Shown here: positions 1,091 through 62,312 of the stretch, piece by piece
How the letters are laid out: each line of letters opens with the position of its first letter
Position numbering within the stretch: the first letter of the stretch is position 1
Source of the DNA: a virus
Lineage: Duplodnaviria > Caudoviricetes
IMG/VR virus record: IMGVR_UViG_3300045747_000505
Reading direction: 5' to 3' (one strand)
Length of the DNA stretch: 64,000 bases
Translations under genes and position numbers: made by a program
The notes under the pieces: model-generated
Database searches by the model: none
What the model was told of the DNA's origin: nothing
What the model saw: the letters and a program-made list of their open reading frames with translations, nothing else

Positions 1091-1153
1091 AGCGTAACAG
1101 ACGAGGGACTGTTACGCTTTCGGGCAACCTGAAATCTAAAAGCGTGATAGAAT
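1091..1153 (+). promoter_or_regulatory. GTAAC/GTTAC inverted repeat plus -10 box
   Basis: AGCGTAACAG-8nt-CTGTTACGCT; TAGAAT at 1148-1153, 31 nt after GTTACG. Confidence 0.7.
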
Positions 1154-1182
1154 GGACACATCCAATCAAAAGGAACCCAATC

Positions 1183-1575
1183 ATGGCCCGCAAAACAGTC
1201 GCTCAACAACGTCAAGAAGAAGCCGCTCAACGCCTCGCCGAGTTTCAAGAGCTCGAGAAGACGCTGCCCAAGCAGCTCTTCGACCTTCAAGTGCGCGCCT
1301 CGAGGCTCAACTGGCTCACGATGCTGACGCTGTCCCCAGTTGGATACACCGTCGAGTTCCTCAATGGAACGCACGACTCGCTGCTCACCGTCGAGATGCC
1401 ACTGCGAATGGGAGACACCGAGCAGTGGCAGCTGGACGCCGTCGCCAACGTGCTGAAGACTCGCGAGGACGAGCTGGCTGAAGAAGCTGCCCGTCGCGAG
1501 CTGGCCAACACGGCTCTCGCCAAGCTGACCAAGGAAGAGCGCGCCGCACTGCGCCAACACTCCCACTTCCTCTGA
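1183..1575 (+). CDS. Hypothetical protein
   Basis: ORF MARKTVAQQRQEE..., AAGGA RBS, downstream of promoter. Confidence 0.75.
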   Translation: MARKTVAQQRQEEAAQRLAEFQELEKTLPKQLFDLQVRASRLNWLTMLTLSPVGYTVEFLNGTHDSLLTVEMPLRMGDTEQWQLDAVANVLKTREDELAEEAARRELANTALAKLTKEERAALRQHSHFL

Positions 1576-1656
1576 ACCGCACACAATTCCTTATTTGCCT
1601 ACTAATGCTATTAGAAGTGCGCTGAGTGGTGTTAGTACGGCATCTCCTTTCATAGG

Positions 1657-1971
1657 GTGAAAATGATCAATCTGAATCAGAAACCTGCCGAGGTCTTCAA
1701 CCTCAAAGAAGGCGATCATGTCCTGCTCAATGGGATAGAATGCGTCATGTACTGTCAAGAGCTGACCAACGAGATCTTCTTCTCGACTGCGGACTCGCGC
1801 TTGGCTGAGTATCAAGCGCTTTGGGCTCACGGCGAGGGCCACAGTACTCGCTACACCGACTACGTCCGCCACGCTCGCATCGGACGCCCTGCCGTCAATT
1901 CGCGCGCCGAGTTTCATCAAGCGCTGCTCAACGACCAAGTCGTCATCGACCCGCCGTTCATCGGCATCTAA
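1657..1971 (+). CDS. Hypothetical protein
   Basis: ORF with phage codon usage. Confidence 0.65.
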   Translation: MKMINLNQKPAEVFNLKEGDHVLLNGIECVMYCQELTNEIFFSTADSRLAEYQALWAHGEGHSTRYTDYVRHARIGRPAVNSRAEFHQALLNDQVVIDPPFIGI

Positions 1972-1980
1972 GGATTCCAC

Positions 1981-2427
1981 ATGTCTCTCCTCATTCGCAT
2001 CAAGGCTGACCAACTTCAGGCTCGCAAGGGCAAGATGACCATGGTTGCCGCTCTGCTCACGACCCTCATCGGCGAAGCCGAAGCCATCGGCAAGAACGCC
2101 GGCAACCGTGCCACGACCGATGACGAGGTCCTGGCCCTCATCGCCAAGTTCATCAAGAATCTCGACGAAACGATTCGTCTGCTTCCCGACACCGACGAGC
2201 GCAAGCTGTCGGCGATCTGTGAGCGCACCTGCCTCATGCAGTACCAGCCACGGCAGCTGACCGAGGCCGAGCTGAAGGACCACGTGCGCGCCATTCACGC
2301 CGGCCTGCTCGGCATGCAAGCCAAGGCTTCGATGGGCGACATCATAGGCGTGCTCAAGTCGCGCTTCGGCGGTCAGTACGACGGCAAGCTCGCTTCGGCC
2401 ATCGTCAAGGCGGAGCTGGCATCATGA
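1981..2427 (+). CDS. yqeY: GatB/YqeY domain protein
   Basis: IKADQLQARK...TDDEVLALIAKFIK...YQPRQLTEAEL...MGDIIG...DGKLASAIVKAEL matches the YqeY pattern. Confidence 0.85.
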   Translation: MSLLIRIKADQLQARKGKMTMVAALLTTLIGEAEAIGKNAGNRATTDDEVLALIAKFIKNLDETIRLLPDTDERKLSAICERTCLMQYQPRQLTEAELKDHVRAIHAGLLGMQAKASMGDIIGVLKSRFGGQYDGKLASAIVKAELAS

Positions 2428-2639
2428 GATTTCACGACATCACCGGTCAGGGCATGATCGACGTTGACGAGATCGCCTTCGTCGGCGTCGTGCTGACCGA
2501 CGAGCGGACCTACATCAACTGGCCGTACTCCATCGTGATTCGCCTGCGCGCCACCGACTCGATCATTCTGTCCTTCAAGGACAAGGGCGACGCAATCGAG
2601 GCCCGCCGAAGCCTTATCACAGCCTGGGGTGATGTATGA
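2424..2639 (+). CDS. Hypothetical protein
   Basis: ATGA overlaps with both neighbours. Confidence 0.65.
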   Translation: MRFHDITGQGMIDVDEIAFVGVVLTDERTYINWPYSIVIRLRATDSIILSFKDKGDAIEARRSLITAWGDV

Positions 2640-4159: not shown

Positions 4160-4677
4160 GCCACAACTTTCGCCTCTACACCTTCGTCGCCGGTCTGTAC
4201 CTCAGCGAGCTTCAGAAGGGTCTGCAGACCGCTCACGTGGTCGGCGAGCTGCACACGCTCTATCGCTCGTACAGCGGTGCTGAAGAACGCGAGACGGCCA
4301 TTCTCGACGAGTGGGCCGAGCTCGACAAGACCATCATCATTCTGTCGGCTGACAACCAGGCTGGTGTGCTGAACGCCTTCAACATGTTCGCCCCAGTCGC
4401 CATGGCCTCGCTGCGACTGCCGATGGCCCTGTTCTACGAGGACAAGGAGTCGATGAACGGCATGGCCACGGCCTGCGGTGTCATCGTGCCGCAAGTCCTG
4501 TGGGACGTGACCTTCACGCCGTCGCAGTCGTTCTCTGGAGCTGAGGGCAAGATGCCAAGCTGGAAGCCCGCCTTCTACCAGCACATTCCGACCAACGGCG
4601 ACCCGACCATCATCTACGGCGAGGGCTCTGACGAGTTCTCCTTCTGCAAGCTCCTCAAATCCTACAGGTTCGCATAA
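4156..4677 (+). CDS. Peptidyl-tRNA hydrolase 2 (PTH2)-like protein
   Basis: YLSELQKGLQTAH...W...KTIIIL...LPMALFYED...ATACGVIVP resembles the PTH2 motif order (Q..AH, K.vl, D/E, T.lg). Confidence 0.45.
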   Translation: MSHNFRLYTFVAGLYLSELQKGLQTAHVVGELHTLYRSYSGAEERETAILDEWAELDKTIIILSADNQAGVLNAFNMFAPVAMASLRLPMALFYEDKESMNGMATACGVIVPQVLWDVTFTPSQSFSGAEGKMPSWKPAFYQHIPTNGDPTIIYGEGSDEFSFCKLLKSYRFA

Positions 4678-5069
4678 TGCTTCGTCTCTCACAGCTCATC
4701 GCCTCCCTTCAGGCGTGTCAACAGATGTACGGCGACGTCGAGGTCATGAAGAATGATTTCGAGGACGGCATCATCCCTATTGCGCCACACGTCGAGTATC
4801 GGCGCGTGGCGCTCGATCTCGCCAACGGCAAGACCTCTGAGCTGCTCAGCGCCGCGGACTACTTCATGGCGCACGACGCGGTGCAGAATCACAACCACAC
4901 TGTGACCGAGATTCAAGAGATCGTGGACAACTGGGAGATGCTGGGCGCCGAGCTGCGCGGCGTCTTCACCGATCCCAAGGAGCTCATGGACATGCACATG
5001 GTCGCCCACTGGCGGAACATCGCCATCGTGCAGGCCTGGGACAACTCGCCAGTCGTGCTGGTTCTGTAA
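4677..5069 (+). CDS. Hypothetical protein
   Basis: Coupled ORF; its stop TAA lies in the GTAAC arm. Confidence 0.7.
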   Translation: MLRLSQLIASLQACQQMYGDVEVMKNDFEDGIIPIAPHVEYRRVALDLANGKTSELLSAADYFMAHDAVQNHNHTVTEIQEIVDNWEMLGAELRGVFTDPKELMDMHMVAHWRNIAIVQAWDNSPVVLVL

Positions 5070-5114
5070 CAGCCGGCAATCGTTACACCTGAACCAACGA
5101 TTGTGTGGTACAAT
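5065..5114 (+). promoter_or_regulatory. TGTAAC..GTTACA element plus -10 (short class)
   Basis: GTTACA 5082-5087, TACAAT 5109-5114, 21-nt spacer. Confidence 0.7.
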
Positions 5115-5363: not shown

Positions 5364-5569
5364 AACTTTTCCTCGCCACCTTTCGCCTCGAGCACAATCC
5401 CTACATGGGCCGGACCCGTGTTGACAAGGAGGTGTCCATGCGGCTGATCTGGGCCGCCAGCGACGACGAGGCGGAGAAGAAGCTGTACGCTGCACTGGAG
5501 AAGCCGGCGCGCCCTGGCGACGACTCTACGTACGTCAAGGACCTGGACATCAACGAGGCCATTTCGTAA
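5360..5569 (+). CDS. Hypothetical protein
   Basis: MKLFLATFRLEHNPY..., ATGA overlap. Confidence 0.65.
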   Translation: MKLFLATFRLEHNPYMGRTRVDKEVSMRLIWAASDDEAEKKLYAALEKPARPGDDSTYVKDLDINEAIS

Positions 5570-5640
5570 CATGTCCATGGTAGGTAACATGGACATGTTA
5601 CACTTTCGCCTGAGCCAGGATGCTCAGGCTGAAGTATAAT
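5566..5640 (+). promoter_or_regulatory. 14-bp GTAAC..GTTAC hairpin plus -10 (long class)
   Basis: GTAACATGTCCATG-8nt-CATGGACATGTTAC; TATAAT 5635-5640, 32-nt spacer containing stem GCCTGAGC/GCTCAGGC. Confidence 0.8.
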
Positions 5641-6845: not shown

Positions 6846-6907
6846 GTTACACCTTCCACGGGTTGTTACACTTTACCGGTGTACAACCCGTCAGGGTATG
6901 GTAGAAT
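6846..6907 (+). promoter_or_regulatory. Tandem GTTACAC boxes plus -10
   Basis: GTTACAC at 6846 and 6865; TAGAAT 6902-6907, 31-nt spacer. Confidence 0.7.
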
Positions 6908-9498: not shown

Positions 9499-9839
9499 GC
9501 TCAGCGGGACACTACATTGGACGTGACGACACGTCGGCAGAACCAACCAGGAAGCCGCTAGGGATTGAGGGAGCACGGGATGGTGTTCTCAGTGTCGACC
9601 GCCTGAGCAAGCTCCCTGCCGTCGAACACCTGGCCGTCCTCGTCGAGAAGCCGTTCTCAGGACCCGACGGCTACGGTGGAACCGAGTACGGTCACCTGCT
9701 CGAGTACCTCGCCTTCGAAAGTGAAAAAGCCCTCGAGGGCTGGATCCTCGCCGCCACCAAGCGGAACGATGTGTTTCGCATTCTTCGCACGAAGAAGCTA
9801 AGTTACACTGTTCACGCGTCAATCTCACTCGAAGCGTGA
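9495..9839 (+). CDS. Hypothetical protein between topoisomerase subunits
   Basis: Coupled ORF; its 3' end contains a GTTACA box. Confidence 0.65.
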   Translation: MSSAGHYIGRDDTSAEPTRKPLGIEGARDGVLSVDRLSKLPAVEHLAVLVEKPFSGPDGYGGTEYGHLLEYLAFESEKALEGWILAATKRNDVFRILRTKKLSYTVHASISLEA

Positions 9840-35404: not shown

Positions 35405-35602
35405 ATGAAAGTATTCAGTGACGCCGCCGTTTCGAAGGACTACGTTGATGCAGCAGCCACTGCTGCAGTTGCAACATCGTCGACCGTTATTGACGCTGTC
35501 GACGCCAAGCAAACGCTGCAAATCAAGCAGCTGCGCAATATCGTCGCCTTGTCCTTTGTTCTGAACCTCGTCATCACGCTGACGCTCAAGTTCCTCGTGT
35601 AA
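35405..35602 (+). CDS. Small protein with C-terminal transmembrane helix
   Basis: IVALSFVLNLVITLTLKFLV; AAGGA RBS. Confidence 0.65.
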   Translation: MKVFSDAAVSKDYVDAAATAAVATSSTVIDAVDAKQTLQIKQLRNIVALSFVLNLVITLTLKFLV

Positions 35603-35660
35603 CGACGCTTCGGTGTCGTTACACTTTAGTCCTACAGATTCCTGTAGGCTGATGTATAAT
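35597..35660 (+). promoter_or_regulatory. GTGTAACGAC/GTCGTTACAC hairpin plus -10
   Basis: 10-bp stem; TATAAT 35655-35660, 31-nt spacer with inner stem CCTACAG/CTGTAGG. Confidence 0.8.
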
Positions 35661-35666
35661 GGCACC

Positions 35667-36131
35667 ATGGACACCGATACCTACACCCTCCTGGAGTCAG
35701 AAGTCAACGACTGGCTGGCATACGCTTCCGTCACCCCGTACGATGCGCAATCGCGCGCCAAGTACAAGGCGATTCGTGAGCGCATCTGCATGCTGTTCCG
35801 CGACTATCGTGCCGCTCACGTCGCCAACTGCAAGGTCACCGAGCTGCCCGAGCGCATCGTTCAGGTCAGCGAACGGACTCTCCGGCACATCGCCACCTGT
35901 CGCGCCAAGGAAGAGCAGGACAAAGAGGACCTGCGCAAGGAGCTTCTTGACAAGCTCACCCGCGCCAGTCGCGAGGCGCTCGTCAACCTCATCTGGGATC
36001 AGAAGGAAGACTACATTCGCGGCTTCGACTCGGTCACCGAAGGTGTCAGCGCCTGGGACTGCCTCATCGACTCCATTCGCTACGGCTACATCACTCGCGA
36101 CAACCTCGCCCATCACGGCATCACCATCTGA
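35667..36131 (+). CDS. Hypothetical early protein
   Basis: ATG 6 nt after -10. Confidence 0.7.
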   Translation: MDTDTYTLLESEVNDWLAYASVTPYDAQSRAKYKAIRERICMLFRDYRAAHVANCKVTELPERIVQVSERTLRHIATCRAKEEQDKEDLRKELLDKLTRASREALVNLIWDQKEDYIRGFDSVTEGVSAWDCLIDSIRYGYITRDNLAHHGITI

Positions 36132-36536: not shown

Positions 36537-36819
36537 CTTCAGCCCAGACAACCACAACGCTGCCACCGCCATGCGAGCGGTGATCGAGCGGCAAGAAGCC
36601 GAAGCCAGGCTCGAAGTGGCAGAGCGCAACATTCGCGTCGCGCTCGTCAACATCGACGCTCGACTGCCGACGCTCTACAAGGCGCAGGGCACCTTCAACG
36701 CCATGCGTGAACTGGCCCGAACACCCGATCAGAAGGTCGCCTCTGACGCGCTGGTCTCTTTCGCTGCCGCCTACGTCGACATGCTGGAAGGGCTTCGCAA
36801 GGAACTGACGAAGGTGTAA
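36526..36819 (+). CDS. Hypothetical protein
   Basis: ORF; stop in GTGTAAC. Confidence 0.65.
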   Translation: MNPDFSPDNHNAATAMRAVIERQEAEARLEVAERNIRVALVNIDARLPTLYKAQGTFNAMRELARTPDQKVASDALVSFAAAYVDMLEGLRKELTKV

Positions 36820-36877
36820 CGATGGACGAGGGCGTTACACTTTGGCTTGAGCAGATTCCCCAGGATCAGGGTATAAT
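36814..36877 (+). promoter_or_regulatory. GTGTAAC..GTTACAC plus -10
   Basis: TATAAT 36872-36877, 32-nt spacer. Confidence 0.75.
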
Positions 36878-36908
36878 GACTCATCGTCACGCTGATACTG
36901 ATTCTGAT

Positions 36909-37160: not shown

Positions 37161-37163
37161 ATC

Positions 37164-37403
37164 GTGGTTTCAAACCTTTCACTTCTTTCACCTGAAGCGT
37201 TTCGCGATCTCGTCGGCATGATCCTCGAGGCAGAGCGCGAGGCACGCGGAGGCCTGAAGACTTCGACGATGCATCAGCTCGAAAAGTGGCTGATCACAGG
37301 CGCCGCCCTGCACAACCCTTGGACTGACGAGCAGCTCCGTGAACTGCGCTTCACCGGTCTCATGACCCTCGTCTACCGTCGCGTCCGTGACCAGGGCGTG
37401 TAA
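37164..37403 (+). CDS. Hypothetical protein
   Basis: ORF; stop in GTGTAAC. Confidence 0.55.
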   Translation: MVSNLSLLSPEAFRDLVGMILEAEREARGGLKTSTMHQLEKWLITGAALHNPWTDEQLRELRFTGLMTLVYRRVRDQGV

Positions 37404-37447
37404 CGGTTACAACTTTTCCTACCACGGATTCAGGTTCGTGGTATAAT
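37398..37447 (+). promoter_or_regulatory. GTGTAAC-G-GTTACA plus -10
   Basis: TATAAT 37442-37447, 30-nt spacer. Confidence 0.75.
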
Positions 37448-37472
37448 GGTCGCATACCAACGAAGGATCCCA

Positions 37473-38923: not shown

Positions 38924-38924
38924 G

Positions 38925-39540: not shown

Positions 39541-39629
39541 AGGCTGCTCCTGAGTTTGACTGACTATTTATGTTCGTTCAACGGCGGACTATAAATAGAA
39601 TCAGAACAACACTTACCGCGAGCACTTAC

Positions 39630-40004
39630 ATGGCGTTCACTCTTCTTCAGCAAGTCTCCGTCTTCGAAGGTCAAGGACCTGTCTCGGTCAAGCTCACCCT
39701 TGGCGAGATCATTCGCGACGGTAAGGTCACGAACCCTTATCAAATCTACGTGCTCTCGTGGTTGTCCGAGTTCTTCAAGAACGGGCAGAAGTCAGCTGCC
39801 CTTCAGCTCGAGATGCCAGTCTCGATTGGCAGCAACGCGACAAATACCGAAGTCATCGACAGTCTCAAGAAGATGTCGCCTGCCGACCAAGTTCACCTTG
39901 CCCAGTACCTCAGTGATTGCATAGATGCCGGCGAATCGGCGGTGCACGACGCGAAGTCGACCATTGTGGATTGGATGAAGTTCGTTCTGCACAAGCAGAA
40001 GTAA
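39630..40004 (+). CDS. Hypothetical late protein
   Basis: TAAATA 39592-39597. Confidence 0.7.
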   Translation: MAFTLLQQVSVFEGQGPVSVKLTLGEIIRDGKVTNPYQIYVLSWLSEFFKNGQKSAALQLEMPVSIGSNATNTEVIDSLKKMSPADQVHLAQYLSDCIDAGESAVHDAKSTIVDWMKFVLHKQK

Positions 40005-40170
40005 AGAATTCACGTCGAGTAATCGACCTCTGAAAGCCGACGCTGGTCAATCCTACAAATAGTGAATCGCTATTGCGACTCAAGCACTCTCCTCAGACCA
40101 GCCCGTTCGGTAACTCGCGCCTCGACTAACGTCGAGGTATTCCGTCCTCCCTGTTTTCGTAGGAGAAATA

Positions 40171-40965: not shown

Positions 40966-40984
40966 GGAGCCCGCCGCACCTTTG

Positions 40985-41009
40985 AAGGGACCCTTGTGGT
41001 CCCTTTTTT
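40985..41009 (+). terminator. Rho-independent terminator
   Basis: AAGGGACC-CTTGT-GGTCCCTT then TTTT. Confidence 0.85.
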
Positions 41010-41084
41010 GCGTAAATACATTTGCGCTTTGTTAGACAGTCGGCCTTAAGCGCGTCCATTATCCCCAGCCGACGAGGAGTCATC

Positions 41085-43118: not shown

Positions 43119-43215
43119 CCAGCATTATTCGGTGTACACGGGGTTCGTTTTACTCTATAATGAGCCATCGCTTCGAGAAAGCGAACCCCGTTAATCCAAA
43201 CTAGAGGAGCAGATT

Positions 43216-43482
43216 TTGATCCCAACCCGTGCACCCGTTATCGCCACCGGTCAACTCTTTCTCAACGAGGCTCTCAACGAATACCTCATAGTGACCAAAA
43301 ATGTTCGAGGTCAAATCTATTACGCTGGACCTGGCTTTCGTGGTTTCTCGGAGGACAATAGCTTCGTCGAGCGTTTTCAACCCGTGGATCCGGCTGACGT
43401 CGAGCCGACAGAACTTCGGACGCTGATCGAGTTCTGCCCAATTGGCACTCGCGCTGCGACCGGCTATATTGCAAAGGACTAA
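43216..43482 (+). CDS. Hypothetical protein
   Basis: TTG start after GAGGAG. Confidence 0.65.
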   Translation: MIPTRAPVIATGQLFLNEALNEYLIVTKNVRGQIYYAGPGFRGFSEDNSFVERFQPVDPADVEPTELRTLIEFCPIGTRAATGYIAKD

Positions 43483-43487
43483 ATCAA

Positions 43488-43964
43488 ATGGCTATTATCT
43501 CAACACGAATGCTTGGCGAGGGAACTGACGAACAGTTTCTCAAGGAGCTTCGAGACGAAATTCAACTCCGCGCCAATCGAGTTCTCGGCGCCAACGCCAT
43601 TCAAATCACCACAGATAAGGTCGATTTGATGTCGTCGCTGTCCGGCCTGATCGAAGGTTACGAGAACGCGACCATGACGATGCTGAGCGATATTCGTGGC
43701 TACCAGCTCACCAACGCCATCATGCAGGTCGAGCTGTCTCAAGCGGCAGCGACGATTCGCGCTTTGACCGCCGTTCCATACGATGCCGCCCTTGATTCGG
43801 CGGTGACCGAGTTCATGGACGTGCTGACGTCAACGGTTAATGGTGCCAGCATGTCGCCGGACAATACTGTCGTCTTCGATGGGCGTCAAACGATTGGCAA
43901 GGGTGATTTGAAACCCGTGCTGCGTGAAGCCATCACGCGCTGGATCGATCAGCGCCTTTCGTAA
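43488..43964 (+). CDS. Hypothetical protein
   Basis: ORF; stop in GTAAC. Confidence 0.7.
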   Translation: MAIISTRMLGEGTDEQFLKELRDEIQLRANRVLGANAIQITTDKVDLMSSLSGLIEGYENATMTMLSDIRGYQLTNAIMQVELSQAAATIRALTAVPYDAALDSAVTEFMDVLTSTVNGASMSPDNTVVFDGRQTIGKGDLKPVLREAITRWIDQRLS

Positions 43965-44021
43965 CAAGCTCAGGATCGTTACACTTTAACCGGTGGCGAT
44001 CCACCGAATCGAGTGTATAAT
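43961..44021 (+). promoter_or_regulatory. GTAAC..GTTACAC plus -10
   Basis: TATAAT 44016-44021, 32-nt spacer with inner stem CGGTGG/CCACCG. Confidence 0.75.
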
Positions 44022-44045
44022 GGTCCTACCAACCAAGGATACCAA

Positions 44046-44477
44046 ATGACACTCGACGATCTTCAAGCCCTGCTCCTGGACCAAGATGCTTTTCGTCGTG
44101 CACTCCGTCGTGATGACGTGGTCGCCCTGCTCAAAGGCCAGTTCCGCGAAGGTCGCCTGCCGAACATTCATCAGGTGACCTTCCCCAACGGGAGCCAGCT
44201 GCGCATCAAGTTCTTCGACACGGTCAAGCGCCTCTTCAACGCCAAGAATGTCGAGCTCATCGGCAAGGAATCCTTCCTGTCCTACATGGAGATCAGCGTG
44301 CTGCCCGTCGGCAGCAAGGGCTACTTCTACACCACGGACGTGAGCCAAATCGTCTGGGGCATGTCACAGACCAAGGCTCGTGTCAAGCACGAAGCCGCCG
44401 TGGCTGCCATTCGTGACTTCGCCACCTCGCTCGACATCACGCCGACCTGGACCACGACCTACACCGAGAACTATTGA
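44046..44477 (+). CDS. Hypothetical early protein
   Basis: AAGGA RBS. Confidence 0.7.
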   Translation: MTLDDLQALLLDQDAFRRALRRDDVVALLKGQFREGRLPNIHQVTFPNGSQLRIKFFDTVKRLFNAKNVELIGKESFLSYMEISVLPVGSKGYFYTTDVSQIVWGMSQTKARVKHEAAVAAIRDFATSLDITPTWTTTYTENY

Positions 44478-44479
44478 TC

Positions 44480-44698
44480 ATGAATGCACGAATTTACGCC
44501 TTCGCTTGGTCGCTGATCATCGTCGGTCTCAGCATTGCCGTCTTCATCTGGTACGACAATGTCGGAGAAGCCTTCAATGCCTTCCACTTCGTCATCGACG
44601 GCATGTTCTCGCTGTCCGCTCTCTGGGCAGCTGGCTTCGGTGCCTTCATGATTCACGAGACCAGCCGCCCGAGCTCGATTCAGTCAATCGCTCGGTAA
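44480..44698 (+). CDS. Small membrane protein
   Basis: Two hydrophobic segments. Confidence 0.6.
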   Translation: MNARIYAFAWSLIIVGLSIAVFIWYDNVGEAFNAFHFVIDGMFSLSALWAAGFGAFMIHETSRPSSIQSIAR

Positions 44699-47700: not shown

Positions 47701-48861
47701 AGCGTTCGTCGTGATGCGAGCATCGAGACCGTTCAACTGAACGACCTGTGATGGCGTCATCACACCAGCCGCTGTCGTCGAGGCTTGGTCCACGGTGAGT
47801 GTGACCGTTGTCAGATCACCAGAGGTCTGAGCGTGCAGTGGAGCGACAGCATTGATCGTGGTCAGCGTACCGTTGCCGGTGCCACCACCGCCACCCGCTG
47901 CTTCACAGACGATGTTGAGCAGAATGGTGCGATCGTTCTTGATCGTGCCGACGCGATAGACGATGTCCGCAATTGGGCGAGTCGTTGTGAGCTGTCCAAG
48001 AGCGTCTGACCACAGCGCTTCGCCAGCATGCCCAGCCCAGTCCCACTGGTCGTAGGTGATTTCGCCAGACTGCGTGAGCGTGCCAACCTCAGTCTCGTTC
48101 AGACCGTATTCGACGAGACCAACTGGTGCCTTGCGAGCTGCAACGGCGTCAACTGAGCTGGACAGCGAGACTGTGTCGACGTCGCTGAAGTAGACCAAGC
48201 TCATCGGCGGGAGATTCTCGCCGGCACGAACTGGAACGAAGTTGTTGATGGCGTTGCTGAGAACGCCAGACGTGCCGACGGTGATGGCGGCACGAACTGG
48301 TGTGTCAGTCGTCAGCAGCGTGCCAGCTGCCGTGCGGACTGGGCGAAGACCTGCGTCGTAGAGGACGAAGCCTGGCTGGCATGGGACGTTGAGACCGACG
48401 CCTGAGCCGGCAATGTAGCCAACAAGCTGCGACGTGCTGCCACCAACTGCCTTGCCGATGAACACGCGTGGCGCCGGAAGCCACTTGGTGTTGGCTGAAT
48501 TGCGCACCTTCATTACCTGGTCGTTGAGGTCAAACCAGTGCTGACCAGCTACCAGCGACGGCTCAACAAGGCTTGTGACTGGCTCGAGCTGCGTCGTGCC
48601 AGTTTGAACCTCGCCAGACAGCAGGTCGATGCCGACGTAGAAGTAGTTGGTTGGACCCAGCACGACCGGACCGAAGGCAGCCGCCTTCTGAACGTCAAAC
48701 TTGAGTAGATAGTCGGTCGGACCGTGCGCGATGGTCGCGAAGAACGGGGTCGGGGCTACCTTCAGGTCGACGTAATCTGGAATGGCAGCCTGAACGAGGA
48801 AGTCTGGCGCCGGTCCGTTTAGTTGGAATGAGATAAGACCTTGGCGGAAAATTAGCTTCAT
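44701..48861 (-). CDS. Large fibre/adhesin-like virion protein (about 1386 aa)
   Basis: Start MKLIFRQG after minus-strand TAAATA 48887-48892; three GG.M.G...L..AP....HA.TK.YVD repeats; five LP.Q.GN.GK.L.TDGT..SW repeats. Confidence 0.8.
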   Translation of the reverse strand: MKLIFRQGLISFQLNGPAPDFLVQAAIPDYVDLKVAPTPFFATIAHGPTDYLLKFDVQKAAAFGPVVLGPTNYFYVGIDLLSGEVQTGTTQLEPVTSLVEPSLVAGQHWFDLNDQVMKVRNSANTKWLPAPRVFIGKAVGGSTSQLVGYIAGSGVGLNVPCQPGFVLYDAGLRPVRTAAGTLLTTDTPVRAAITVGTSGVLSNAINNFVPVRAGENLPPMSLVYFSDVDTVSLSSSVDAVAARKAPVGLVEYGLNETEVGTLTQSGEITYDQWDWAGHAGEALWSDALGQLTTTRPIADIVYRVGTIKNDRTILLNIVCEAAGGGGGTGNGTLTTINAVAPLHAQTSGDLTTVTLTVDQASTTAAGVMTPSQVVQLNGLDARITTNAGNITTLQSTKANANHSHLITDVTGLTTELSNKLPLAGGTMTGFITLNAAPTASLHAVTKGYVDTAISSIASANTSFQSQLDGKLNITGGSMTGPLSLSGAPVNALDAASKSYVDTTTATITAGVGTLLDGKLSLTGGTMSGPITLSGAPVVPLHAATKQYVDSAMSASSLTAGTGITITSGVVAIGQPVATTSNPVFNNINASGSVVIQGNLTVTGTTTTIASASLDVGNASISLLNLVTGVPTQNASFAVNRGTSPEVSMRWNEALDQWEFTNDGLIFHKFITSLADLGSTTYTDAQADLRVAAGIAGSSINALADVDTVAPAPTDGQVLTWVAASSLWKPRTPASAVSSVNGFTGAVVLSSTNITEGTNQYFTTSRARTAISATAPISYDSTTGIISAAGLGTVSSVSGAGGTTGLTLAGGPITTTGTLTLGGTLNIASGGTGATTASAALTGLLPSQAGNANKVLTTDGTNSSWSTVSASNVLPAITGNSGKYLGTDGTTISWTAFSANAILPAQAGHATQFLTSDGTNSSWAAISASTLLPSQVGNAGKALITNGTAAVWSTITPDSVLPAQSGNSGKVLTTDGINSSWGTVSASTATNLLGGAASQIPFQSAGSATAFSANLAWVTSTSTLLLGGTASNTTITTNVADTLTLNSSALMVKTGTTERLRVLANGAWSVGTGGTATGTSGQVLMSTGATTAPAWTSMPGGLSTAGSTGTIQIVGAGGVLAAGNGVYTAPTTTFTGTAAGAAVAIRSTTAVASWLDLGRAAAEAVIGVTGVAAQHFTGTLAGDLVLRSSTAAVRLGYSSAGTTAPTLSLDTSGNAILGQAGYVSFVAGSTEKMRVTSTGGVSFGATGTATGTTGQVLTSAGAASPVWKDSGEFMVIALSDETTALSTGTAKVTFRAPYAMTLYQIPRAGLSSAGTGTTSVDVKVNGTSILGVAKLTIDAAEKTSTTAAAATTLITTTIADDAEFTLDIAAAGAGAKGLKVTLYYQRT

Positions 48862-48922
48862 TGAGAGCTCCACGAATTGGTTTGAGTATTTATCACGTTG
48901 GCAGCTTCTGGTTGATGCCCCG

Positions 48923-48930
48923 TATAAATA
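48923..48930 (+). promoter_or_regulatory. T4-type late promoter TATAAATA (divergent from minus-strand TAAATA 48887-48892)
   Basis: Exact T4 late consensus. TAAATA also precedes late genes at 1079(-), 13343, 19990, 22073, 24158, 25682, 32199, 39565(-), 39592, 41013, 56791, 62120, 63900(-). Confidence 0.8.
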
Positions 48931-48954
48931 GCTGACTGGAATACGGAGCACTGA

Positions 48955-50436
48955 ATGCAACTCACAGAACTATTCGAAGCCAAGTACAGCGGTGCAAACG
49001 TTGGCTCGGCTATGTCAAAGATCGTCTCGTACCTTGAGCGAGCAATGAGCTTCAAGCTGCTCAAGCTCGGAGTCGAAACCTTTCACAACAGCGCAGAGAA
49101 CGCTCGTGGCATTCGCTACGTCGAGCTCGGCACGCTCAACTGCATTCGCTTCAACTGGGTTGGTTCGAAGTCATCAGAGATCGTCTCGATCGACCTGTGG
49201 AATGGTTCATCGCGCGACCCGAACTTTCACATCAAGCTGAACGGTACCTCGCTCGTCAAGGCGCTGCCCGCTCTCGTTCAAGTGCTGAAGTCGCCGAAGA
49301 TCGGCAAGGTCTCCGTGACCGAAGCGCTCGTGCTTGAGGTCAAGAAGGGTGAGTTCAGCGAGACGTCTGCCGTCAACGACATGATTCAGAAGCTTGAAGC
49401 TGGTCGCAGCTTCAACCGCTCAGAGTTCATCAACGCCTATCACGTGGACAATGCTCACGCATTCGACGAGTTCGTTGAGGCGAACAAGGATGATCTCGTC
49501 TTCACTGGCAAGCGCATCAGCATTCCAAAGGGCACCAAGCTCGGCGCCAAGTCTGATGGTGGTGGCGGCGGACTGACGGTCACGAAGGGTGGCAGCGGTG
49601 AAGAGTACGAGGTCGAGGTTCCAGAGTCTGAGGACCGTGTCACCTTCAGCGACAGCATCAAGGATCTGGAAGGTCTGACGACCGCAGTCATTCGTGGCAA
49701 CGCCAACGCGCTGTTCGTCGCTGGCCGTGGTGGTACCGGCAAGACGCAGACGGTTGAGGACGTGCTCGCTGCCGCTGGTCTTGAGGATGGCAAGGGCTAC
49801 GAGAAGATCACTGGCTCGGCCTCGCCAATCGGCATCTACTACGCGCTCTACAAGAATCGCACCGGCATCATTCTGTTCGACGACTGCGACGGCGCGCTCG
49901 ATCAGCAAGACGGCCGCAACGTCATCAAGGCGGCGACCGACACGAAGAAGATTCGCAAGATCGCTTGGGGCAAGAAGAATCCAGGCATGTACGACCCAGA
50001 CTCACGCGCGCCACCGCCGTCTGATCCAGATGAGGACGAGGGTGTTGACGATGAAGAGGGTGGCGATGATGACGGTGGTTCTTCTGGCAAGCAAGACGAC
50101 AAGATTCCAAACCGCTTCAACTTCGAAGGTCGCGTCATCTTCATCTCGAACATGCCGCTGAACAAGCTCGACCCAGACGGCGCCCTTCGCACTCGCGCCT
50201 TCGTCATCAGCGTTGACCCAACGCCAGAGGAAATGTTCGAGCGCATGGGTGAGATTCTGCACAGCATTCGCCTTGAGTCTGGCTCGCTGTCGCCTAAGGA
50301 GCGTCAAGAGGTTCTGACGGTTGTTCGTGGCTCCAAGCGCGCCAAGGACGCCTCACTGCGTACGCTCGTTCGCGCCCTCAACCTCGCAAGCAGCGGAGCT
50401 CCAAACTGGAAGCTTCTGGTTCAGCGCTACGCGTAA
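48955..50436 (+). CDS. Late AAA+ ATPase with N-terminal extension
   Basis: GRGGTGKT, IILFDDCD, RVIFISN, ALRTR; N-terminus MQLTELFEAK; acidic insert. Confidence 0.85.
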   Translation: MQLTELFEAKYSGANVGSAMSKIVSYLERAMSFKLLKLGVETFHNSAENARGIRYVELGTLNCIRFNWVGSKSSEIVSIDLWNGSSRDPNFHIKLNGTSLVKALPALVQVLKSPKIGKVSVTEALVLEVKKGEFSETSAVNDMIQKLEAGRSFNRSEFINAYHVDNAHAFDEFVEANKDDLVFTGKRISIPKGTKLGAKSDGGGGGLTVTKGGSGEEYEVEVPESEDRVTFSDSIKDLEGLTTAVIRGNANALFVAGRGGTGKTQTVEDVLAAAGLEDGKGYEKITGSASPIGIYYALYKNRTGIILFDDCDGALDQQDGRNVIKAATDTKKIRKIAWGKKNPGMYDPDSRAPPPSDPDEDEGVDDEEGGDDDGGSSGKQDDKIPNRFNFEGRVIFISNMPLNKLDPDGALRTRAFVISVDPTPEEMFERMGEILHSIRLESGSLSPKERQEVLTVVRGSKRAKDASLRTLVRALNLASSGAPNWKLLVQRYA

Positions 50437-50500
50437 GTGTAACAGGGCTGCGTGAGCAGCTCGGTTCGTTACACCTGGGCTGAGGATTTCGGTGTATAAT
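50437..50500 (+). promoter_or_regulatory. GTGTAAC..GTTACAC plus -10 (short class)
   Basis: TATAAT 50495-50500, 21-nt spacer. Confidence 0.75.
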
Positions 50501-51633: not shown

Positions 51634-51893
51634 ACTACAACCGCTACTTCAACGCGTCGCTCAACCGCTCCTACAAGCGGTGGCGGCGAGCGCCTGGTCC
51701 AGTCGGGCAGAGTGTGCCCGGCAACGTCTTCGATCCGGACCCGCGCAAGGACTCCAAGCACAAGTTCGATCGCTGGCTCTTTCGATCTGATGCCGCCAAG
51801 CGCGTCTACTGGCGGACTCATCCCCAATATGGCAAGAATGGCAAGAATGGCAAGTCGCCCTTCAAGTACTGGACAGAGCTGATCAGAGTGTAA
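51630..51893 (+). CDS. Hypothetical basic protein
   Basis: GTGA overlap; 9-bp repeat GGCAAGAAT 51831-51854; stop in GTGTAAC. Confidence 0.6.
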   Translation: MNYNRYFNASLNRSYKRWRRAPGPVGQSVPGNVFDPDPRKDSKHKFDRWLFRSDAAKRVYWRTHPQYGKNGKNGKSPFKYWTELIRV

Positions 51894-51937
51894 CGATCGC
51901 GCTTCGTTACACCTGAACCTTCGAATTGGTGTATAAT
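51888..51937 (+). promoter_or_regulatory. GTGTAACGA/TCGTTACAC hairpin plus -10 (short class)
   Basis: TATAAT 51932-51937, 20-nt spacer. Confidence 0.8.
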
Positions 51938-52773: not shown

Positions 52774-52946
52774 AGTGGACCGTCTGGCTCTTCTTCTCCT
52801 GCCTGCTCGCCATCATCGGCGTGTTGATGGCGGACCTGCTCGACTGGGACCCATTCAAGGACAACAGCGGACCGGAGTACGTGAAGTACAAGATCGTTTG
52901 GATCGTGCTGCCGAAGCCGAAGCCGTGGTTCGAGTGGATGAAGTAA
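52770..52946 (+). CDS. Small membrane protein
   Basis: N-terminal hydrophobic helix. Confidence 0.6.
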   Translation: MKWTVWLFFSCLLAIIGVLMADLLDWDPFKDNSGPEYVKYKIVWIVLPKPKPWFEWMK

Positions 52947-52998
52947 CCTGCATTTAGGTCAAAACTTCTTTACAATGTTGATAGAATCAAGGTGTGAT

Positions 52999-54247: not shown

Positions 54248-54445
54248 ATGATAGTTCGAGCCACCTTCAATCAACTCCCAGTCGGCATATTGCCAGGGCA
54301 GAACATTCGATATCAACTTCAGCACGGGCTTTGGTATGTCGATTTGGCAGAGAATATACCATGGCGCAACGTCACGGCGTATGAGATAGATACTCAACGG
54401 CAAGTCCTCTGTGGCTACAAAACCGCCTCCATGCAAGAGGTGTAA
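54248..54445 (+). CDS. Hypothetical protein
   Basis: GGAGG RBS; TAAGTA upstream; stop in GTGTAAC. Confidence 0.6.
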   Translation: MIVRATFNQLPVGILPGQNIRYQLQHGLWYVDLAENIPWRNVTAYEIDTQRQVLCGYKTASMQEV

Positions 54446-54502
54446 CGAGCGGAAAGTTCGTTACACTTTAGCCAGCCTGATTCCCGTGCAGTATGTTATA
54501 GT
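54440..54502 (+). promoter_or_regulatory. GTGTAACGAGC/GTTCGTTACAC hairpin plus -10
   Basis: TGtTATAGT with TATAGT at 54497-54502, 31-nt spacer. Confidence 0.7.
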
Positions 54503-54529: not shown

Positions 54530-55495
54530 ATGTCTAAAACAGCTCTCCTCGCGTTGAACGTCAGAACCGGCAAGTGGGAAGCCTCCTTCGGCGGCAAGAC
54601 CATCGTGTCGTCTGCCGACAAGAAGTACGTGGCCCACGTCATCACCAAGGGTCTGAACACCAAGGCCCGTGAGCTTGGCATCACCAAGGTCGAGGAGCTG
54701 GGCGTTGCCAACGGCAAGCTCGAAGCTCACGCCGCTCCCCTCGTCGAGTTCGACATCAACGAACGCTTCGACTTCCTCGCCGACTTCGTCGACATGGTCG
54801 CTGACCGTCAGCGCAAGTCGGTGGTCGTCGTTGGTGAGGGTGGTCTCGGCAAGACCTTCACGGTCATGAACCAACTTCGCAAGCGCGGTCTCAAGGACAT
54901 CTCCAAGATGGAGATCGGCGCCATGATGAACGCATCGCTGGATGCCAAGTCCTACGTGGTCGTCAAGGGCTACAGCACGCCGAAAGGCCTGTTCCGCACG
55001 CTCTTCGAGAACCGCAATCGCCTTGTGATCTTCGACGACTGCGACAGCATCCTCCACGACGAGACCGCCAGCAACCTTCTGAAGGCAGCGCTGGACAGCT
55101 ACGACGAGCGCATCGTGACGTGGAACGCTGAGTCGTTCGGCGAGTCCGATCTGCCGAAGAGCTTCGAGTTCACTGGTGCTGTGATCTTCATCAGCAACAA
55201 GTCGATGCACAAGATTCCGCAAGCCATCATCAGCCGCTCGGCTCCTGCCGACGTCTCGATGACCCGCGCCGAGATCATCGCTCGCATGCGTCAAATCGTC
55301 AAGGGTGGTGAGTTCATGGCCGACGACTCCATGGACGTCAAGCTCGAAGCCCTCGAGTTCATCGCCGGCCACATCAACAACCCGCAGATCAAGGCGATCA
55401 ACCTGCGGACCCTCATCGCTGTGGTGACCAACCGTCGCTGCAAGCCGTCCAACTGGCAACGTCTCTCGCTGTGCGAGATGATGGCCGCTCGCTAA
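54530..55495 (+). CDS. Early AAA+ ATPase (paralogue of 48955-50436)
   Basis: GEGGLGKT, LVIFDDCD, NLLKAALD, AVIFISN, AIISR. Confidence 0.85.
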   Translation: MSKTALLALNVRTGKWEASFGGKTIVSSADKKYVAHVITKGLNTKARELGITKVEELGVANGKLEAHAAPLVEFDINERFDFLADFVDMVADRQRKSVVVVGEGGLGKTFTVMNQLRKRGLKDISKMEIGAMMNASLDAKSYVVVKGYSTPKGLFRTLFENRNRLVIFDDCDSILHDETASNLLKAALDSYDERIVTWNAESFGESDLPKSFEFTGAVIFISNKSMHKIPQAIISRSAPADVSMTRAEIIARMRQIVKGGEFMADDSMDVKLEALEFIAGHINNPQIKAINLRTLIAVVTNRRCKPSNWQRLSLCEMMAAR

Positions 55496-57957: not shown

Positions 57958-59118
57958 GTGATCACATTCAAACTATTCCTCGAATCTAAAGAGCTCGCCG
58001 TTCACGACGTTCGCCCATTGGGGGCGCTCGAGCTGAAGCGCGCTCAGGACATGGCGGCGATCTTTCTCAAGGCGCACGAGCTGCTCGACCACGGTTCACG
58101 TGGCTTCGAACTTCACCACATCGGTGAGATGCGCAGCGTCCTGATCAAGTACGGCAAGGGCTTCATCTTCGCCAAGCGAATGCTGCAGCACCTCGACGAG
58201 CTGCTCGCCTCGCACGATAAGATGCTGAGCGCTGGTGATCGGTTGCAAGACAAGCACGCTGACCTGAAGAACGGCGCCAACGATCTGAAGGCAGCGTTCC
58301 TCTCTGGCGATCGTGGCGCGATGCGCAAGCACAAGAAGGCGCTCGACGCCCACATCGACGATCTCGATCATCACGTCAACGCGCCAGGCTCAGCTCACCG
58401 AGCGATCGAGAACGAGTTCACCGAGTCGCCGTCGGTCTTCGGCTCGACTCGCCTGATGCAGCGCATTGGCAGCGACGAGCTGACCAAGGTCAAGGCGCTC
58501 GACTTCTCCAAGACGCTCTTCACCAACATCGACTTTCCACACGGCGCCTCTGACAGCATCGACCACGCTCTGTACTTTCTGCTGCAGCTCAGTGAGTCGC
58601 CAAAGACTCGCCGCGTCACCGACGCCAGCGACCTGCGCCAGCACAGCAAGATCAAGTACGCCACCGACAAGGGCTTCAATGAGCTGATGCGCCTGATGGA
58701 GCAGTACCTCCACTCGAACGACAAGACGCTGATCCCACGCATCGTAGAGCTGATCAACGCCAACCCAGCGCTGAAGGCTGCCAACGAGAAGGCGAAGCTG
58801 AAGACTAAGGTCGTGTATCGTGGTCTTGGCTTCGGTGAGGACGACAACGTCTCGCAGAAGAAGGTTATGGCTGGCGAGAAGAAACGCAAGTACGTCGCCA
58901 CCAGCATCTCACGCCACGCAGCAAAGAACTTCGCTCTTCAGAAGGGTCACCTCGAGGACGAGGACTCACGTCGCTCAGAGGTTGGCGTGATGCTGACCTA
59001 CTCAGTGACGCCAGCAGCGATCGTGTTCGACACGCGCGTGCTCGACGTCGCCTACGGCGAGTCAGAGATTCTGATCGACGCCACCAAAGCAAAACTAACA
59101 AACTTCGAGGAGCTCTGA
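57958..59118 (+). CDS. Protein with C-terminal ADP-ribosyltransferase-like domain
   Basis: VYRG (58813-58824), ATSISRHAAKNFA, YGESEILI; N-terminus MITFKLFLES. Confidence 0.6.
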   Translation: MITFKLFLESKELAVHDVRPLGALELKRAQDMAAIFLKAHELLDHGSRGFELHHIGEMRSVLIKYGKGFIFAKRMLQHLDELLASHDKMLSAGDRLQDKHADLKNGANDLKAAFLSGDRGAMRKHKKALDAHIDDLDHHVNAPGSAHRAIENEFTESPSVFGSTRLMQRIGSDELTKVKALDFSKTLFTNIDFPHGASDSIDHALYFLLQLSESPKTRRVTDASDLRQHSKIKYATDKGFNELMRLMEQYLHSNDKTLIPRIVELINANPALKAANEKAKLKTKVVYRGLGFGEDDNVSQKKVMAGEKKRKYVATSISRHAAKNFALQKGHLEDEDSRRSEVGVMLTYSVTPAAIVFDTRVLDVAYGESEILIDATKAKLTNFEEL

Positions 59119-60070: not shown

Positions 60071-60443
60071 GATCGTTGAGACGTTCGACGTCAAGCCGAC
60101 GATTGACAAGCTGCGCGCAGATCTTGCTGAGCTCGGCATCAAGTCGCCAGCCTTCAGCGCTGGCTTCTGCTTTCACGCTGCCGCTCGTCTCTACGACGCG
60201 CTGCACGCCAAGTACCCGTCACACGAGATAGTGATTCTTCACGATGGTGCGCACGTTGTCGTGCATGACTTCGAGACGGACACAAGCTACGACGCCACAG
60301 GCTTTGGCAAGACCATGGGCTGGCATCAGTCCAGACCACCGAAGCATCAGTGGAAGAACTCGGCGGCTCTCGTGAAGTTCCTAAAGAGGAACGAGAAGAA
60401 GCTTCGTCCTGAAAGTGTAACAGGACTCAAGGCGCTCGAGTAA
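60057..60443 (+). CDS. Hypothetical protein
   Basis: MLLIEIVETF...; overlaps the previous gene. Confidence 0.65.
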   Translation: MLLIEIVETFDVKPTIDKLRADLAELGIKSPAFSAGFCFHAAARLYDALHAKYPSHEIVILHDGAHVVVHDFETDTSYDATGFGKTMGWHQSRPPKHQWKNSAALVKFLKRNEKKLRPESVTGLKALE

Positions 60444-60488
60444 TCGTTACAGCTTGAGTGTGCCTGAACCTCAGGATTGGTGTATAAT
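60415..60488 (+). promoter_or_regulatory. GTGTAAC..GTTACA plus -10
   Basis: GTTACA 60446-60451; TATAAT 60483-60488, 31-nt spacer. Confidence 0.7.
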
Positions 60489-60800: not shown

Positions 60801-61145
60801 GTGATCAACGCACACGAAGCCAGAGCCCTCGTTGCTCAAAGCAGCAAGATGCTGCTTCACCGCCTCGAGGCGATCTGCGCTCAGATCGAAGTGGCTGCCA
60901 AGCTTGGCAGGTCTGAGATTTGGCTAGACATCGCGCTGCCGCATCACAAGGAGTTCATCGTCGAGCCGACGGCGTTCTACCCTGTCACCTTCACTCCGAT
61001 TCAGGCTCAAGTGGCGAAGGGTCTCGATGACCTCGGCTTCGTCATGAAGATCGAAAATCGTCGCACGAAGATCGGCGGCGGTCTCGGCAGCATGGATGAC
61101 GAGGTCAGGTACGAGGATCTGCCGTACATCAAGGTGACCTGGTAA
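60801..61145 (+). CDS. Hypothetical protein
   Basis: AAGGAG RBS, GTG start. Confidence 0.7.
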   Translation: MINAHEARALVAQSSKMLLHRLEAICAQIEVAAKLGRSEIWLDIALPHHKEFIVEPTAFYPVTFTPIQAQVAKGLDDLGFVMKIENRRTKIGGGLGSMDDEVRYEDLPYIKVTW

Positions 61146-61162
61146 GTCACCGCTGAACCTAG

Positions 61163-61186
61163 GAATGGGACCACGTGGTCCCATTC
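61163..61186. repeat. Perfect 24-bp palindrome
   Basis: GAATGGGACCAC|GTGGTCCCATTC. Confidence 0.9.
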
Positions 61187-61251
61187 GGCTATGTTAGAAT
61201 AGCCACACCGGCGATGAGTCGGTACCCTTCAACCCGTTACCAAGGATCACT

Positions 61252-62082
61252 ATGCCATACGCCACACTAGGCGAAAGATTGAAGGCTTATGAAGCCTCAG
61301 ACACTCAACGCAAGGCCTTCAAGGGCCAGCCCATCATCGCTCGACTTGATGGAAAGTCGTTTCATACATTCTGCAAGGGCCTTCGTCGCCCGTTCGACGT
61401 TCGTCTCAGCGATCTGATGATCAAGACGATGTCGTTTCTGGTCGATCGCTTTCAAGCCTCGGCCGGCTACTGTCAGAGCGACGAGATCACGCTGGCTTGG
61501 TTCGCAGACAGCACCTCAGCCACCGAGTATCCCTTCGACGGCCGCTTTCAAAAGATGGACTCGCTGCTCGCCTCGACGGCCTCGGTCTACTTCAATCAGT
61601 TCCTCGAAGAGTTTCTGCCTGAGAAGGCCGATCTGATGCCGGTGTTCGACTGCCGCACCTTCACCGTGCCGAACCTGCTCGAAGCCTACCACTGCTTCCT
61701 CTGGCGGCAGCAGGATTGTACGAAGAATGCAATCAGCATGGCCGCGCAGTCGATGTTCTCGCACAAGAGCCTGCAAGGCCTCAAGGGCCGTCAGATGCAG
61801 GAGAAGATGTGGGCCGAGAAGGGCGTGAACTTCAACGACTACCCAGCCTTCTTCCGGCGTGGCACCTTCGCTCGGCGCGTGCTGGCTCGGCGTCAGATGA
61901 CCGACATGGACTTCGAGCGCATCCCGCCGATGTATCAGCCGAAGGACGGCATGATCGAACGGTCGGTGATCGAAACCTGTAACGCTTGGCTTCAACGCCT
62001 CGAGGATCCGGTGTCGTTCCTCTTCAAGGGCGGCGCTGAAGCGTACCGGACGGCGACAGGGACAGTTGACGACGAGGACTGA
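61252..62082 (+). CDS. thg1: tRNA(His) guanylyltransferase-like protein (Thg1-like 3'-5' polymerase)
   Basis: IIARLDGKSFH, PFD, QSDEI, FDGRFQK, FDCR, WRQQDC.KNAIS, RRGT. Confidence 0.92.
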   Translation: MPYATLGERLKAYEASDTQRKAFKGQPIIARLDGKSFHTFCKGLRRPFDVRLSDLMIKTMSFLVDRFQASAGYCQSDEITLAWFADSTSATEYPFDGRFQKMDSLLASTASVYFNQFLEEFLPEKADLMPVFDCRTFTVPNLLEAYHCFLWRQQDCTKNAISMAAQSMFSHKSLQGLKGRQMQEKMWAEKGVNFNDYPAFFRRGTFARRVLARRQMTDMDFERIPPMYQPKDGMIERSVIETCNAWLQRLEDPVSFLFKGGAEAYRTATGTVDDED

Positions 62083-62156
62083 TAGGCACTGTCAGGCAAG
62101 GAGGGACGTTCCCTGCGCGTAAATAGAACGTTCCTCAATCGTAACGAAAGCCAACA

Positions 62157-62279
62157 ATGCCAGGTCTCAGCTCAATCCTCTTCGAGCTCGCTCCCAAAAT
62201 GATAATGAGCCTGATGTTCTGGTGGCTCCCAGTCCAGCCGAAGGCAAAGCCGTTACAAGTGTCAAGAAGTTACAGGTGA
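62157..62279 (+). CDS. Small late peptide
   Basis: TAAATA 62120-62125; MPGLSSILFELAPKMIMSLMFWWLP... Confidence 0.4.
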   Translation: MPGLSSILFELAPKMIMSLMFWWLPVQPKAKPLQVSRSYR

Positions 62280-62312
62280 TTCGAACCTAACCGAGAGTTC
62301 ATGTGGTATAAT
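62269..62312 (+). promoter_or_regulatory. GTTACA box plus -10
   Basis: TATAAT 62307-62312, 32-nt spacer; second GTTACA at 62252. Confidence 0.65.

Follow-up and report, generated by a model that had tools for sequence, protein, structure and literature searches.

A GTTACA box phased to the -10 hexamer, a putative activator site at sigma70-type promoters of T4-like jumbo phages

Results

The virus record IMGVR_UViG_3300045747_000505 (IMG/VR) supplies the 64,000-nucleotide stretch of DNA analysed here, which we refer to as the window, and in it a short box, GTTAC(A/G), recurs at fixed distances upstream of sigma70-like -10 hexamers. The box is also present in about 20 related contigs and in the cultured Ralstonia phage RsoM2USA, and we regard it, with moderate confidence, as an asymmetric activator site whose geometry is that of class I and class II activators and resembles that of the marbox. 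This reading is drawn from the sites being oriented, phased to the -10 and placed only upstream, from the half-turn shift when they are reversed, and from loss of the -35 where they overlap it.

A first-pass annotation had listed 14 such promoters in the window, and all 14 boxes are where it placed them, with spacers to the -10 of 31, 32, 31, 32, 31, 32, 30, 32, 31, 31 and 32 nucleotides (nt) in a long class, and 21, 21 and 20 nt in a short class. The box sequences given for the two classes also agree, with GTTACACCTG at 3/3 short-class sites and GTTACACTTT at six of the 11 long-class sites. GTTAC(A/G) followed 15–45 nt on by TA(T/G/C)AAT occurs 13 times on the plus (coding) strand of the window and not at all on the minus strand, whereas 200 dinucleotide shuffles averaged 0.025 and never gave more than 1; the remaining site, at 54460, lies outside this strict pattern, its -10 being TATAGT. 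A tentative case with a 40-nt spacer at 14816 has only a weak -10 (TATGAT), and the forward 41–42-nt slot is almost empty in relatives (2 boxes versus 0.32 expected per distance), and we have not counted it. What had been overlooked is a second copy of the box further upstream, inverted at 11 of the 14 promoters and direct at two, and the window holds 13 inverted box pairs where 0.285 are expected.

Relatives were collected in two ways, with L114 (351 kb), L115 (383 kb) and L117 coming from protein homology and G003–G007 and more IMG/VR loci from the motif; topoisomerases of four of the five relatives G003–G007 are 46–65% identical to those of the window. Among the matches listed, loose pattern scans of viral and metagenome contigs gave mostly single chance matches. 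Genes for both subunits of topoisomerase II and for thymidylate synthase, RNA ligase, Thg1 and tail fibre proteins lie in the window, as do late-type ATAAATA promoters. Its source contig measures 273,537 bp; judged by its sequence, this is a jumbo phage of the T4-like kind, and none of the cultured phages is close to it (the topoisomerase large subunit is at most 49.5% identical). The box carriers are a family of freshwater jumbo phages, one of them, RsoM2USA, grown in the laboratory.

Genome-wide spacer counts were taken from the whole records of relatives, and the distribution is non-uniform, as the first-pass annotation would have it: 50 forward boxes lie at 30–32 nt, where 0.32 are expected per distance. 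The short class is minor across the family (5 versus 61 long). Solo reversed boxes, those without any forward box, occupy other slots, with 13 at 26–28 nt (about 1 expected) and 13 at 34–38 nt (about 1.7 expected); they are themselves phased (R 0.70), and the offset between forward and reverse boxes is about 6 nt of a 10.5-nt turn, or about half a turn. RsoM2USA has four forward boxes at 30–31 nt and six reverse boxes at 26–28 nt (0.43 expected for each). Relative to the -10, 123 boxes are upstream and five are downstream. Across 96 promoters, partners start 6–9, 16–20, 26–32 or 39 nt upstream of the box, with near-equal phase in both orientations, and none of 2000 uniform draws reached their periodicity (Rayleigh R 0.64 at a period of 10.5). 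With forward slots about one turn apart (means 31.2 and 20.2 nt), periodic partner spacing and phased solo reverse boxes, the suggestion that a factor binds on one face of the helix is supported. The centre of the 10-bp site is ambiguous, as shifts of -3 and +2 fit equally. We also considered GTWAC as a fully symmetric site, which we rejected given the strong orientation of the main slot.

The usual layout in relatives is GTTACA, seven to nine mostly T-rich bases, a GTGTAC hexamer at the -35, 17–18 nt, and the -10, which at box promoters is near the sigma70 consensus. The earlier claim that there is no consistent -35 holds within the window, where one of 11 long-class promoters is within one mismatch of this -35, but not within the family, where 32 of 50 are (p 0.0016; about 3% by chance; seven of the relatives' cases are built in by the search pattern). 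L114, L115 and RsoM2USA, which were found without the pattern of box plus GTGTACA, share the box/-35/-10 layout. G003 has 46 promoters with the family -35, eight of them boxed, and as most G003 promoters are thus box-free with the same -35, the basal promoter of the family is, on this comparison, GTGTAC, 17–18 nt, and a TA(T/C/G)AAT -10, mostly with TG just upstream, to which the box is an addition. In early promoters of T4 and PST, TTTACW is reported as the -35 (PMC4122927), and the family GTGTAC differs from it by one base. Where boxes are dense the -35 is poorer, being kept at 9/24 paired-box promoters versus 13/19 solo ones (p 0.07), and at none of the five short-class promoters, a small number, is there a sequence within one mismatch of it. 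Sequence comparison indicates that the -35 is decayed in the window genome, where 6865 still has the full form and 43132 is a basal promoter lacking the box, and box promoters there would therefore depend on the factor.

Further symmetry is apparent in this region. At the short-class promoters 50468–50500, 51906–51937 and L072 6265 (minus strand), the TACACC of the box has a mirror copy, GGTGTA, that extends into the -10, and the two form a 6-bp inverted repeat around the spacer. Several promoters have sequence-variable palindromes in the -35 region (61160–61190, and the spacers at 5597 and 35618), and perfect 12-bp arms precede the -10 at 61195.

The box is held at 31–32 nt before orthologous genes whose products are 45–65% identical. 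At the AAA ATPase gene the distance from box to -10 is 31 nt in G003, G004, G007, L131 and L287 as well as in the window; for the topoisomerase medium subunit, the promoters of the window, G005 and G007 carry the box and those of L114, L116 and G003 lack it; and at the RNA ligase promoter the window and G007 have it in the same layout, with a GTAAC variant in G005. Because the rest of the intergenic DNA has diverged, this points to selection on the box and its distance and not to recent copying. Gene content near box promoters varies among the window, L114 and L115, which is at most suggestive of recombination between copies.

No 30–32-nt peak above control was present in phages X1, XacN1, CM1, PhiW-14 and pf16, and there is no spacing peak in Escherichia coli K-12 (3/20 matches at 30–32 nt) or a Ralstonia megaplasmid. 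The full pattern has five matches in 596 Gb of prokaryote genomes. The lack of the spacing in E. coli and the Ralstonia replicon, together with the rarity of the full pattern in prokaryotes, suggests that the putative factor is of phage origin, though it may be a host protein. A topoisomerase search of GTDB genomes gave no host lead. L115 (GCA_040384225.1, contig JAWVHC010000046.1) is a 383-kb phage relative inside an NCBI genome assembly, and is possibly either a mis-binned phage or a host clue.

Box promoters share features downstream of the -10. The motif YAT(C/G), which resembles a start site, is 5–6 nt after the -10 in 60/96 box promoters versus 8/215 controls on the minor strand, and in 37/96 an ATG follows the -10 by 5–7 nt, corresponding to leaderless genes such as those at 9852 (topoisomerase II medium subunit) and 35667. 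From the placement of both we infer that transcription probably starts at the seventh base after the -10, and promoter coordinates below assume this start. A different motif, AACCT(G/A), occupies the same upstream slot, 30–34 nt before the -10, at other promoters (61156–61200, 52945–52987 and 14258 in the window, and in G003–G007). It is additionally found inside the -35/-10 spacer (11–13 nt) and, reversed as AGGTT, 3–6 nt before the -10; full dyads are rare. This motif is possibly the site of a second regulator.

The features of the window, together with loci of a small basic protein in relatives, are collected in Table 1.

Table 1. Predicted promoters of the window and loci of the small basic protein family
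Feature	Position	Strand	Elements
Long-class promoter	1093..1153	+	inverted partner 1093-1098; box GTTACG 1111-1116; -10 TAGAAT 1148-1153; 31 nt; same layout at matching L115 position
Short-class promoter	5065..5114	+	inverted partner 5065-5070 with TAA of ORF (open reading frame) 4677-5069; box 5082-5087; -10 TACAAT 5109-5114; 21 nt
Long-class promoter	5565..5640	+	inverted partners 5566 and 5584 in 14-bp palindrome; box 5597-5602; -10 5635-5640; 32 nt
Long-class promoter, full family form	6846..6907	+	direct partner 6846-6851; box 6865-6870; -35 GTGTAC 6879-6884; 17-nt spacer; -10 TAGAAT 6902-6907
Solo long-class promoter, topoisomerase II medium subunit	9802..9854	+	box 9802-9807; -10 9840-9845; leaderless ATG 9852
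Doubtful 40-nt case	14807..14867	+	inverted partner on TAA of ORF 14254-14811; box 14816-14821; weak -10 TATGAT 14862-14867
Long-class promoter	35598..35669	+	inverted partner on TAA of ORF 35405-35602 (12-bp stem, UUCG loop); box 35618-35623; -10 35655-35660; leaderless ATG 35667
Long-class promoter	36815..36877	+	inverted partner on TAA of ORF 36526-36819; box 36834-36839; -10 36872-36877
Long-class promoter, RNA ligase gene	37399..37447	+	inverted partner 1 nt upstream of box 37406-37411; -10 37442-37447
Long-class promoter	43960..44021	+	inverted partner on TAA of ORF 43488-43964; box 43978-43983; -10 44016-44021
Short-class promoter	50438..50500	+	inverted partner 50438-50443 (gap 24); box 50468-50473; -10 50495-50500
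Short-class promoter	51889..51937	+	inverted partner 51889-51894 (gap 11); box 51906-51911; -10 51932-51937
Long-class promoter, conserved AAA ATPase gene 54530-55495	54441..54502	+	inverted partner 54441-54446; box 54460-54465; -10 TATAGT 54497-54502
Long-class promoter	60416..60488	+	inverted partner 60416-60421 (gap 24); box 60446-60451; -10 60483-60488; box precedes homologous gene in G005
Long-class promoter	62252..62312	+	direct partner 62252-62257; box 62269-62274; -10 62307-62312
Box-free basal promoter, family type	43132..43161	+	GTGTAC, 18 nt, TATAAT
Promoter with second motif AACCT(A/G) in same upstream slot	61156..61200	+	motif 34 nt before TAGAAT at 61195
Small basic protein locus	L177:10193-10465	-	
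Small basic protein locus	L186:12963-13307	-	
Small basic protein locus	L164:16904-17104	-	
Small basic protein locus	L159:19508-19786	-	
Small basic protein locus	L143:10711-11040	+	

Candidates for the binding factor were sought among the proteins of relatives. Searches with MotCF, MotA_activ, AsiA and Mor gave no match, and neither did a search of G003–G007 for motA and asiA, in which no positive genome was among the controls; one sub-threshold match each came from sigma region 4 and HTH_18, in proteins not common to the genomes. Among 120 small proteins common to G003 and G004, Pfam scans returned only DsbA and WYL_2 as possible regulators. A family of small basic proteins (66–118 residues, about 190 homologues, no Pfam or PHROG match) has a box promoter at all six loci examined. 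Its predicted helical fold is weakly like helix-extended-helix binders (Rho N-terminal domain, Z 5.6; SAP, Z 4.6) and also like the EndoVII C-terminal domain, all below significance; Foldseek gave no match, VIA-align only Z scores below 8, and Atlas nothing usable. The family was not detected in RsoM2USA, which carries the box, so that the protein is no more than a lead to the factor.

Discussion

The arrangement that we favour is of sigma70-type promoters in a T4-like jumbo phage, a subset of which has an extra, asymmetric, putative protein-binding site, GTTACA. Forward boxes would lie at about -49 to -44 in a major slot upstream of the -35 or, in a minor slot overlapping it, at -39 to -34, and reversed boxes at about -45 to -40, -55 to -50 and -67 to -62, roughly half a turn out of phase; a second box would often provide another binding site farther out. 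From these positions the host RNA polymerase may be recruited by a sequence-specific activator that the phage probably encodes, with predicted contacts to the C-terminal domain of the alpha subunit (alpha-CTD) from the upstream slots and to sigma region 4 from the overlapping one, in the manner of class I and class II activators. Such geometries are described (PMC6900184, PMC10268841), and loss of the -35 is reported for class II promoters (PMC10268841).

Several observations weigh against an activator site. Searches for MotA, AsiA, Mor, AraC-type and sigma region 4 proteins found nothing over the cut-off in two near-complete relatives, and a DsbA-like protein is the sole annotated regulator that is shared. 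The 38 box-free promoters of G003 have the same -35 as its boxed promoters, so that the box is dispensable there. Forward partners near -66 fit the forward lattice poorly, being about 2 nt off. The pattern used to find G003–G007 required box plus GTGTACA, which builds in seven of 27 perfect -35 cases. L117, with 64% topoisomerase identity, has no 30–32-nt box in the 21 kb examined, and the box may not be universal in the family.

RNA polymerase could instead recognise the box directly, as an UP-like element particular to the phage and bound by alpha-CTD, perhaps after ADP-ribosylation as with T4 Alt; no separate activator would then be involved. The slots do fall in the UP-element region, the reverse ones centring near -42, -52 and -64, close to the textbook positions of alpha-CTD. 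It is also in keeping with this that a T-run follows the forward long box (T in 66–75% of sites), that no activator gene was found, and that T4 early promoters have an extra consensus and are stimulated by Alt-modified alpha (PMC2988021). We nonetheless think it unlikely, given that the minor slot overlaps the -35, that the core of the box has an invariant G and C, and that such spacing was not seen in E. coli or the Ralstonia replicon. Sites for alpha-CTD are generally A/T tracts contacted in the minor groove, and alpha-CTD is not known to bind over the -35. Were the boxes operators of a phage repressor that shuts the promoters off later in infection, the paired sites and those overlapping the -35 would be typical, and the small basic protein, with its box promoters and weak likeness to nucleic-acid binders, would fit autoregulation; but that protein escaped detection in RsoM2USA and its fold match is below significance, and strict phasing to the -10, few sites at or after the start and -35 loss at box promoters all fit activation better, making repression distinctly unlikely.

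Two readings concern the inverted pairs rather than the box. In nine of 12 inverted cases in the window (14816 included) the TAA in the left arm is the stop codon of an ORF 65 or more codons long, as though the arms were RNA hairpins (terminators or 3' end protectors) of PeSL-type cassettes that share sequence through cassette copying and recombination; a few pairs (5597, 35618, 54460) do fold well with long stems, and many downstream genes have no homologue in relatives, as around PeSLs (PMC4122927). Yet pairing of the inner flanks is at chance (21/71 versus 18.5 expected), so that the arms are not in general selected as RNA stems. In relatives a partner is missing from half the promoters, and direct repeats account for many of the partners that do occur. 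No identical stretch shared between cassettes exceeds 16 nt, and boxes persist at orthologous core-gene promoters. An intrinsic terminator, with a GC-rich stem and U-rich tract, is likewise called at none of the four sites tested (34500–44500), and we hold the hairpin explanation to be very improbable. The upstream stop codon falls within the TAAC that closes the left arm, and GTT opens the right arm, a likeness to integron attC sites, in which one arm (...AAC) has a stop codon and the other has GTT. Recombination sites of this type are scarcely credible here and largely refuted: no tyrosine recombinase was found in G003, G004 and RsoM2USA (the control matched in 14/14 genomes), long hairpins are lacking, and the fixed distance is to the -10, not between the arms.

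Taken as an activator site, the box can be set against known systems, and on the sequences compared it would act at a sigma70 promoter much as an activator box does, within a cassette that resembles a PeSL, and is not a MotA box, marbox, attC site or terminator. The first-pass annotation had drawn an analogy to T4 middle promoters, with their sigma appropriation by MotA and AsiA, and the likeness extends to a T4-like phage, a near-consensus host sigma70 -10, and a phage-specific box upstream of some promoters, those of replication genes among them. In T4, MotA has the box (a/t)(a/t)(a/t)TGCTTtA, which takes the place of the -35 at 12 +/- 1 bp from the -10 (PMC2988021). In contrast, GTTACA differs in sequence, is 20–21 or 30–32 nt from the -10, occurs in both orientations and in paired copies, and is usually upstream of a -35 that 32/50 long-class promoters of relatives keep; the analogy to a MotA-dependent middle promoter is therefore not supported. 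The relatives searched gave no MotA or AsiA match. Sites for MarA, SoxS and Rob are alike in geometry, as the marbox is also asymmetric, with a forward slot over the -35 accompanied by -35 loss, another close upstream of the -35 as for zwf, and reverse slots further upstream at helical intervals. The likeness is in geometry only: the box does not match the marbox consensus GCAHWWWWTGYYAAA, its core is 6 bp, its main slot is the one upstream of the -35, and no protein of the AraC type scored over the cut-off.

As in the PeSL and PmSL cassettes of T4-like phages (RB49, phi1, PST and nt-1; PMC4122927), a sigma70-like promoter is fitted compactly between a stop codon and the next gene, often beside genes without homologues. 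Unlike in PeSLs, the conserved feature appears to be the phased box and not a stem-loop, partners may be direct or absent, and there is no AT-rich upstream tract, the upstream DNA being, by inspection, the GC-rich end of the preceding gene. The Rak2-like jumbo phage vB_PcaM_CBB has sigma70-like promoters that follow an UP-like element, along with late promoters of the ATAAATA type and a second class whose -35 is altered (PMC5259590). Its second class differs in having TGAAACG at the -35 position, and the parts of that account available to us describe no GTTACA box or orientation-dependent phasing (PMC5259590). The RsoM2USA paper contains no promoter analysis and speculates on an unknown phage transcription protein (PMC8504454). 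Searches of the open literature, as distinct from subscription papers, turned up no account of the box. The family-wide -35, the reverse-orientation slots, the conservation at orthologous genes and the cultured carrier are new.

Activation by a phased box at a sigma70 promoter is a known principle, which limits the surprise. To our knowledge, how pre-replicative genes are ordered is poorly known in T4-like and jumbo phages without a recognisable MotA/AsiA or an RNA polymerase of their own. We tentatively propose that this lineage may have its own MotA-independent activation of the host sigma70 polymerase, in which an as yet undescribed phage protein reads a 6-bp site both ways at half-turn intervals; the AACCT(G/A) box in the same slot may be served by a second factor, giving two parallel regulons. 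The element supplies a precise target sequence, a spacing rule and a cultured carrier phage, so that the missing factor can be fished for directly, and an activator site that is this small and tolerates either orientation could be put to use in synthetic promoters.

Additional features of the window and its relatives

The AAA-type ATPases at 48955–50436 and 54530–55495 are paralogues and belong to phrog_1250 (function unknown), and the second has the most deeply conserved box promoter. Large ORFs of the window with no Pfam or PHROG match are at 44701–48960 (minus strand, 1419 amino acids), 14918–17263 (plus strand, 781 amino acids) and 57958–59118 (plus strand, 386 amino acids). The topoisomerase II medium subunit gene at G004:331758-333083 (plus strand) has one in-frame TGA, which may reflect recoding, a split gene or an error. 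The 1419-amino-acid ORF runs against the main strand, behind a late-type ATAAATA at 48893, and has homologues in four relatives.

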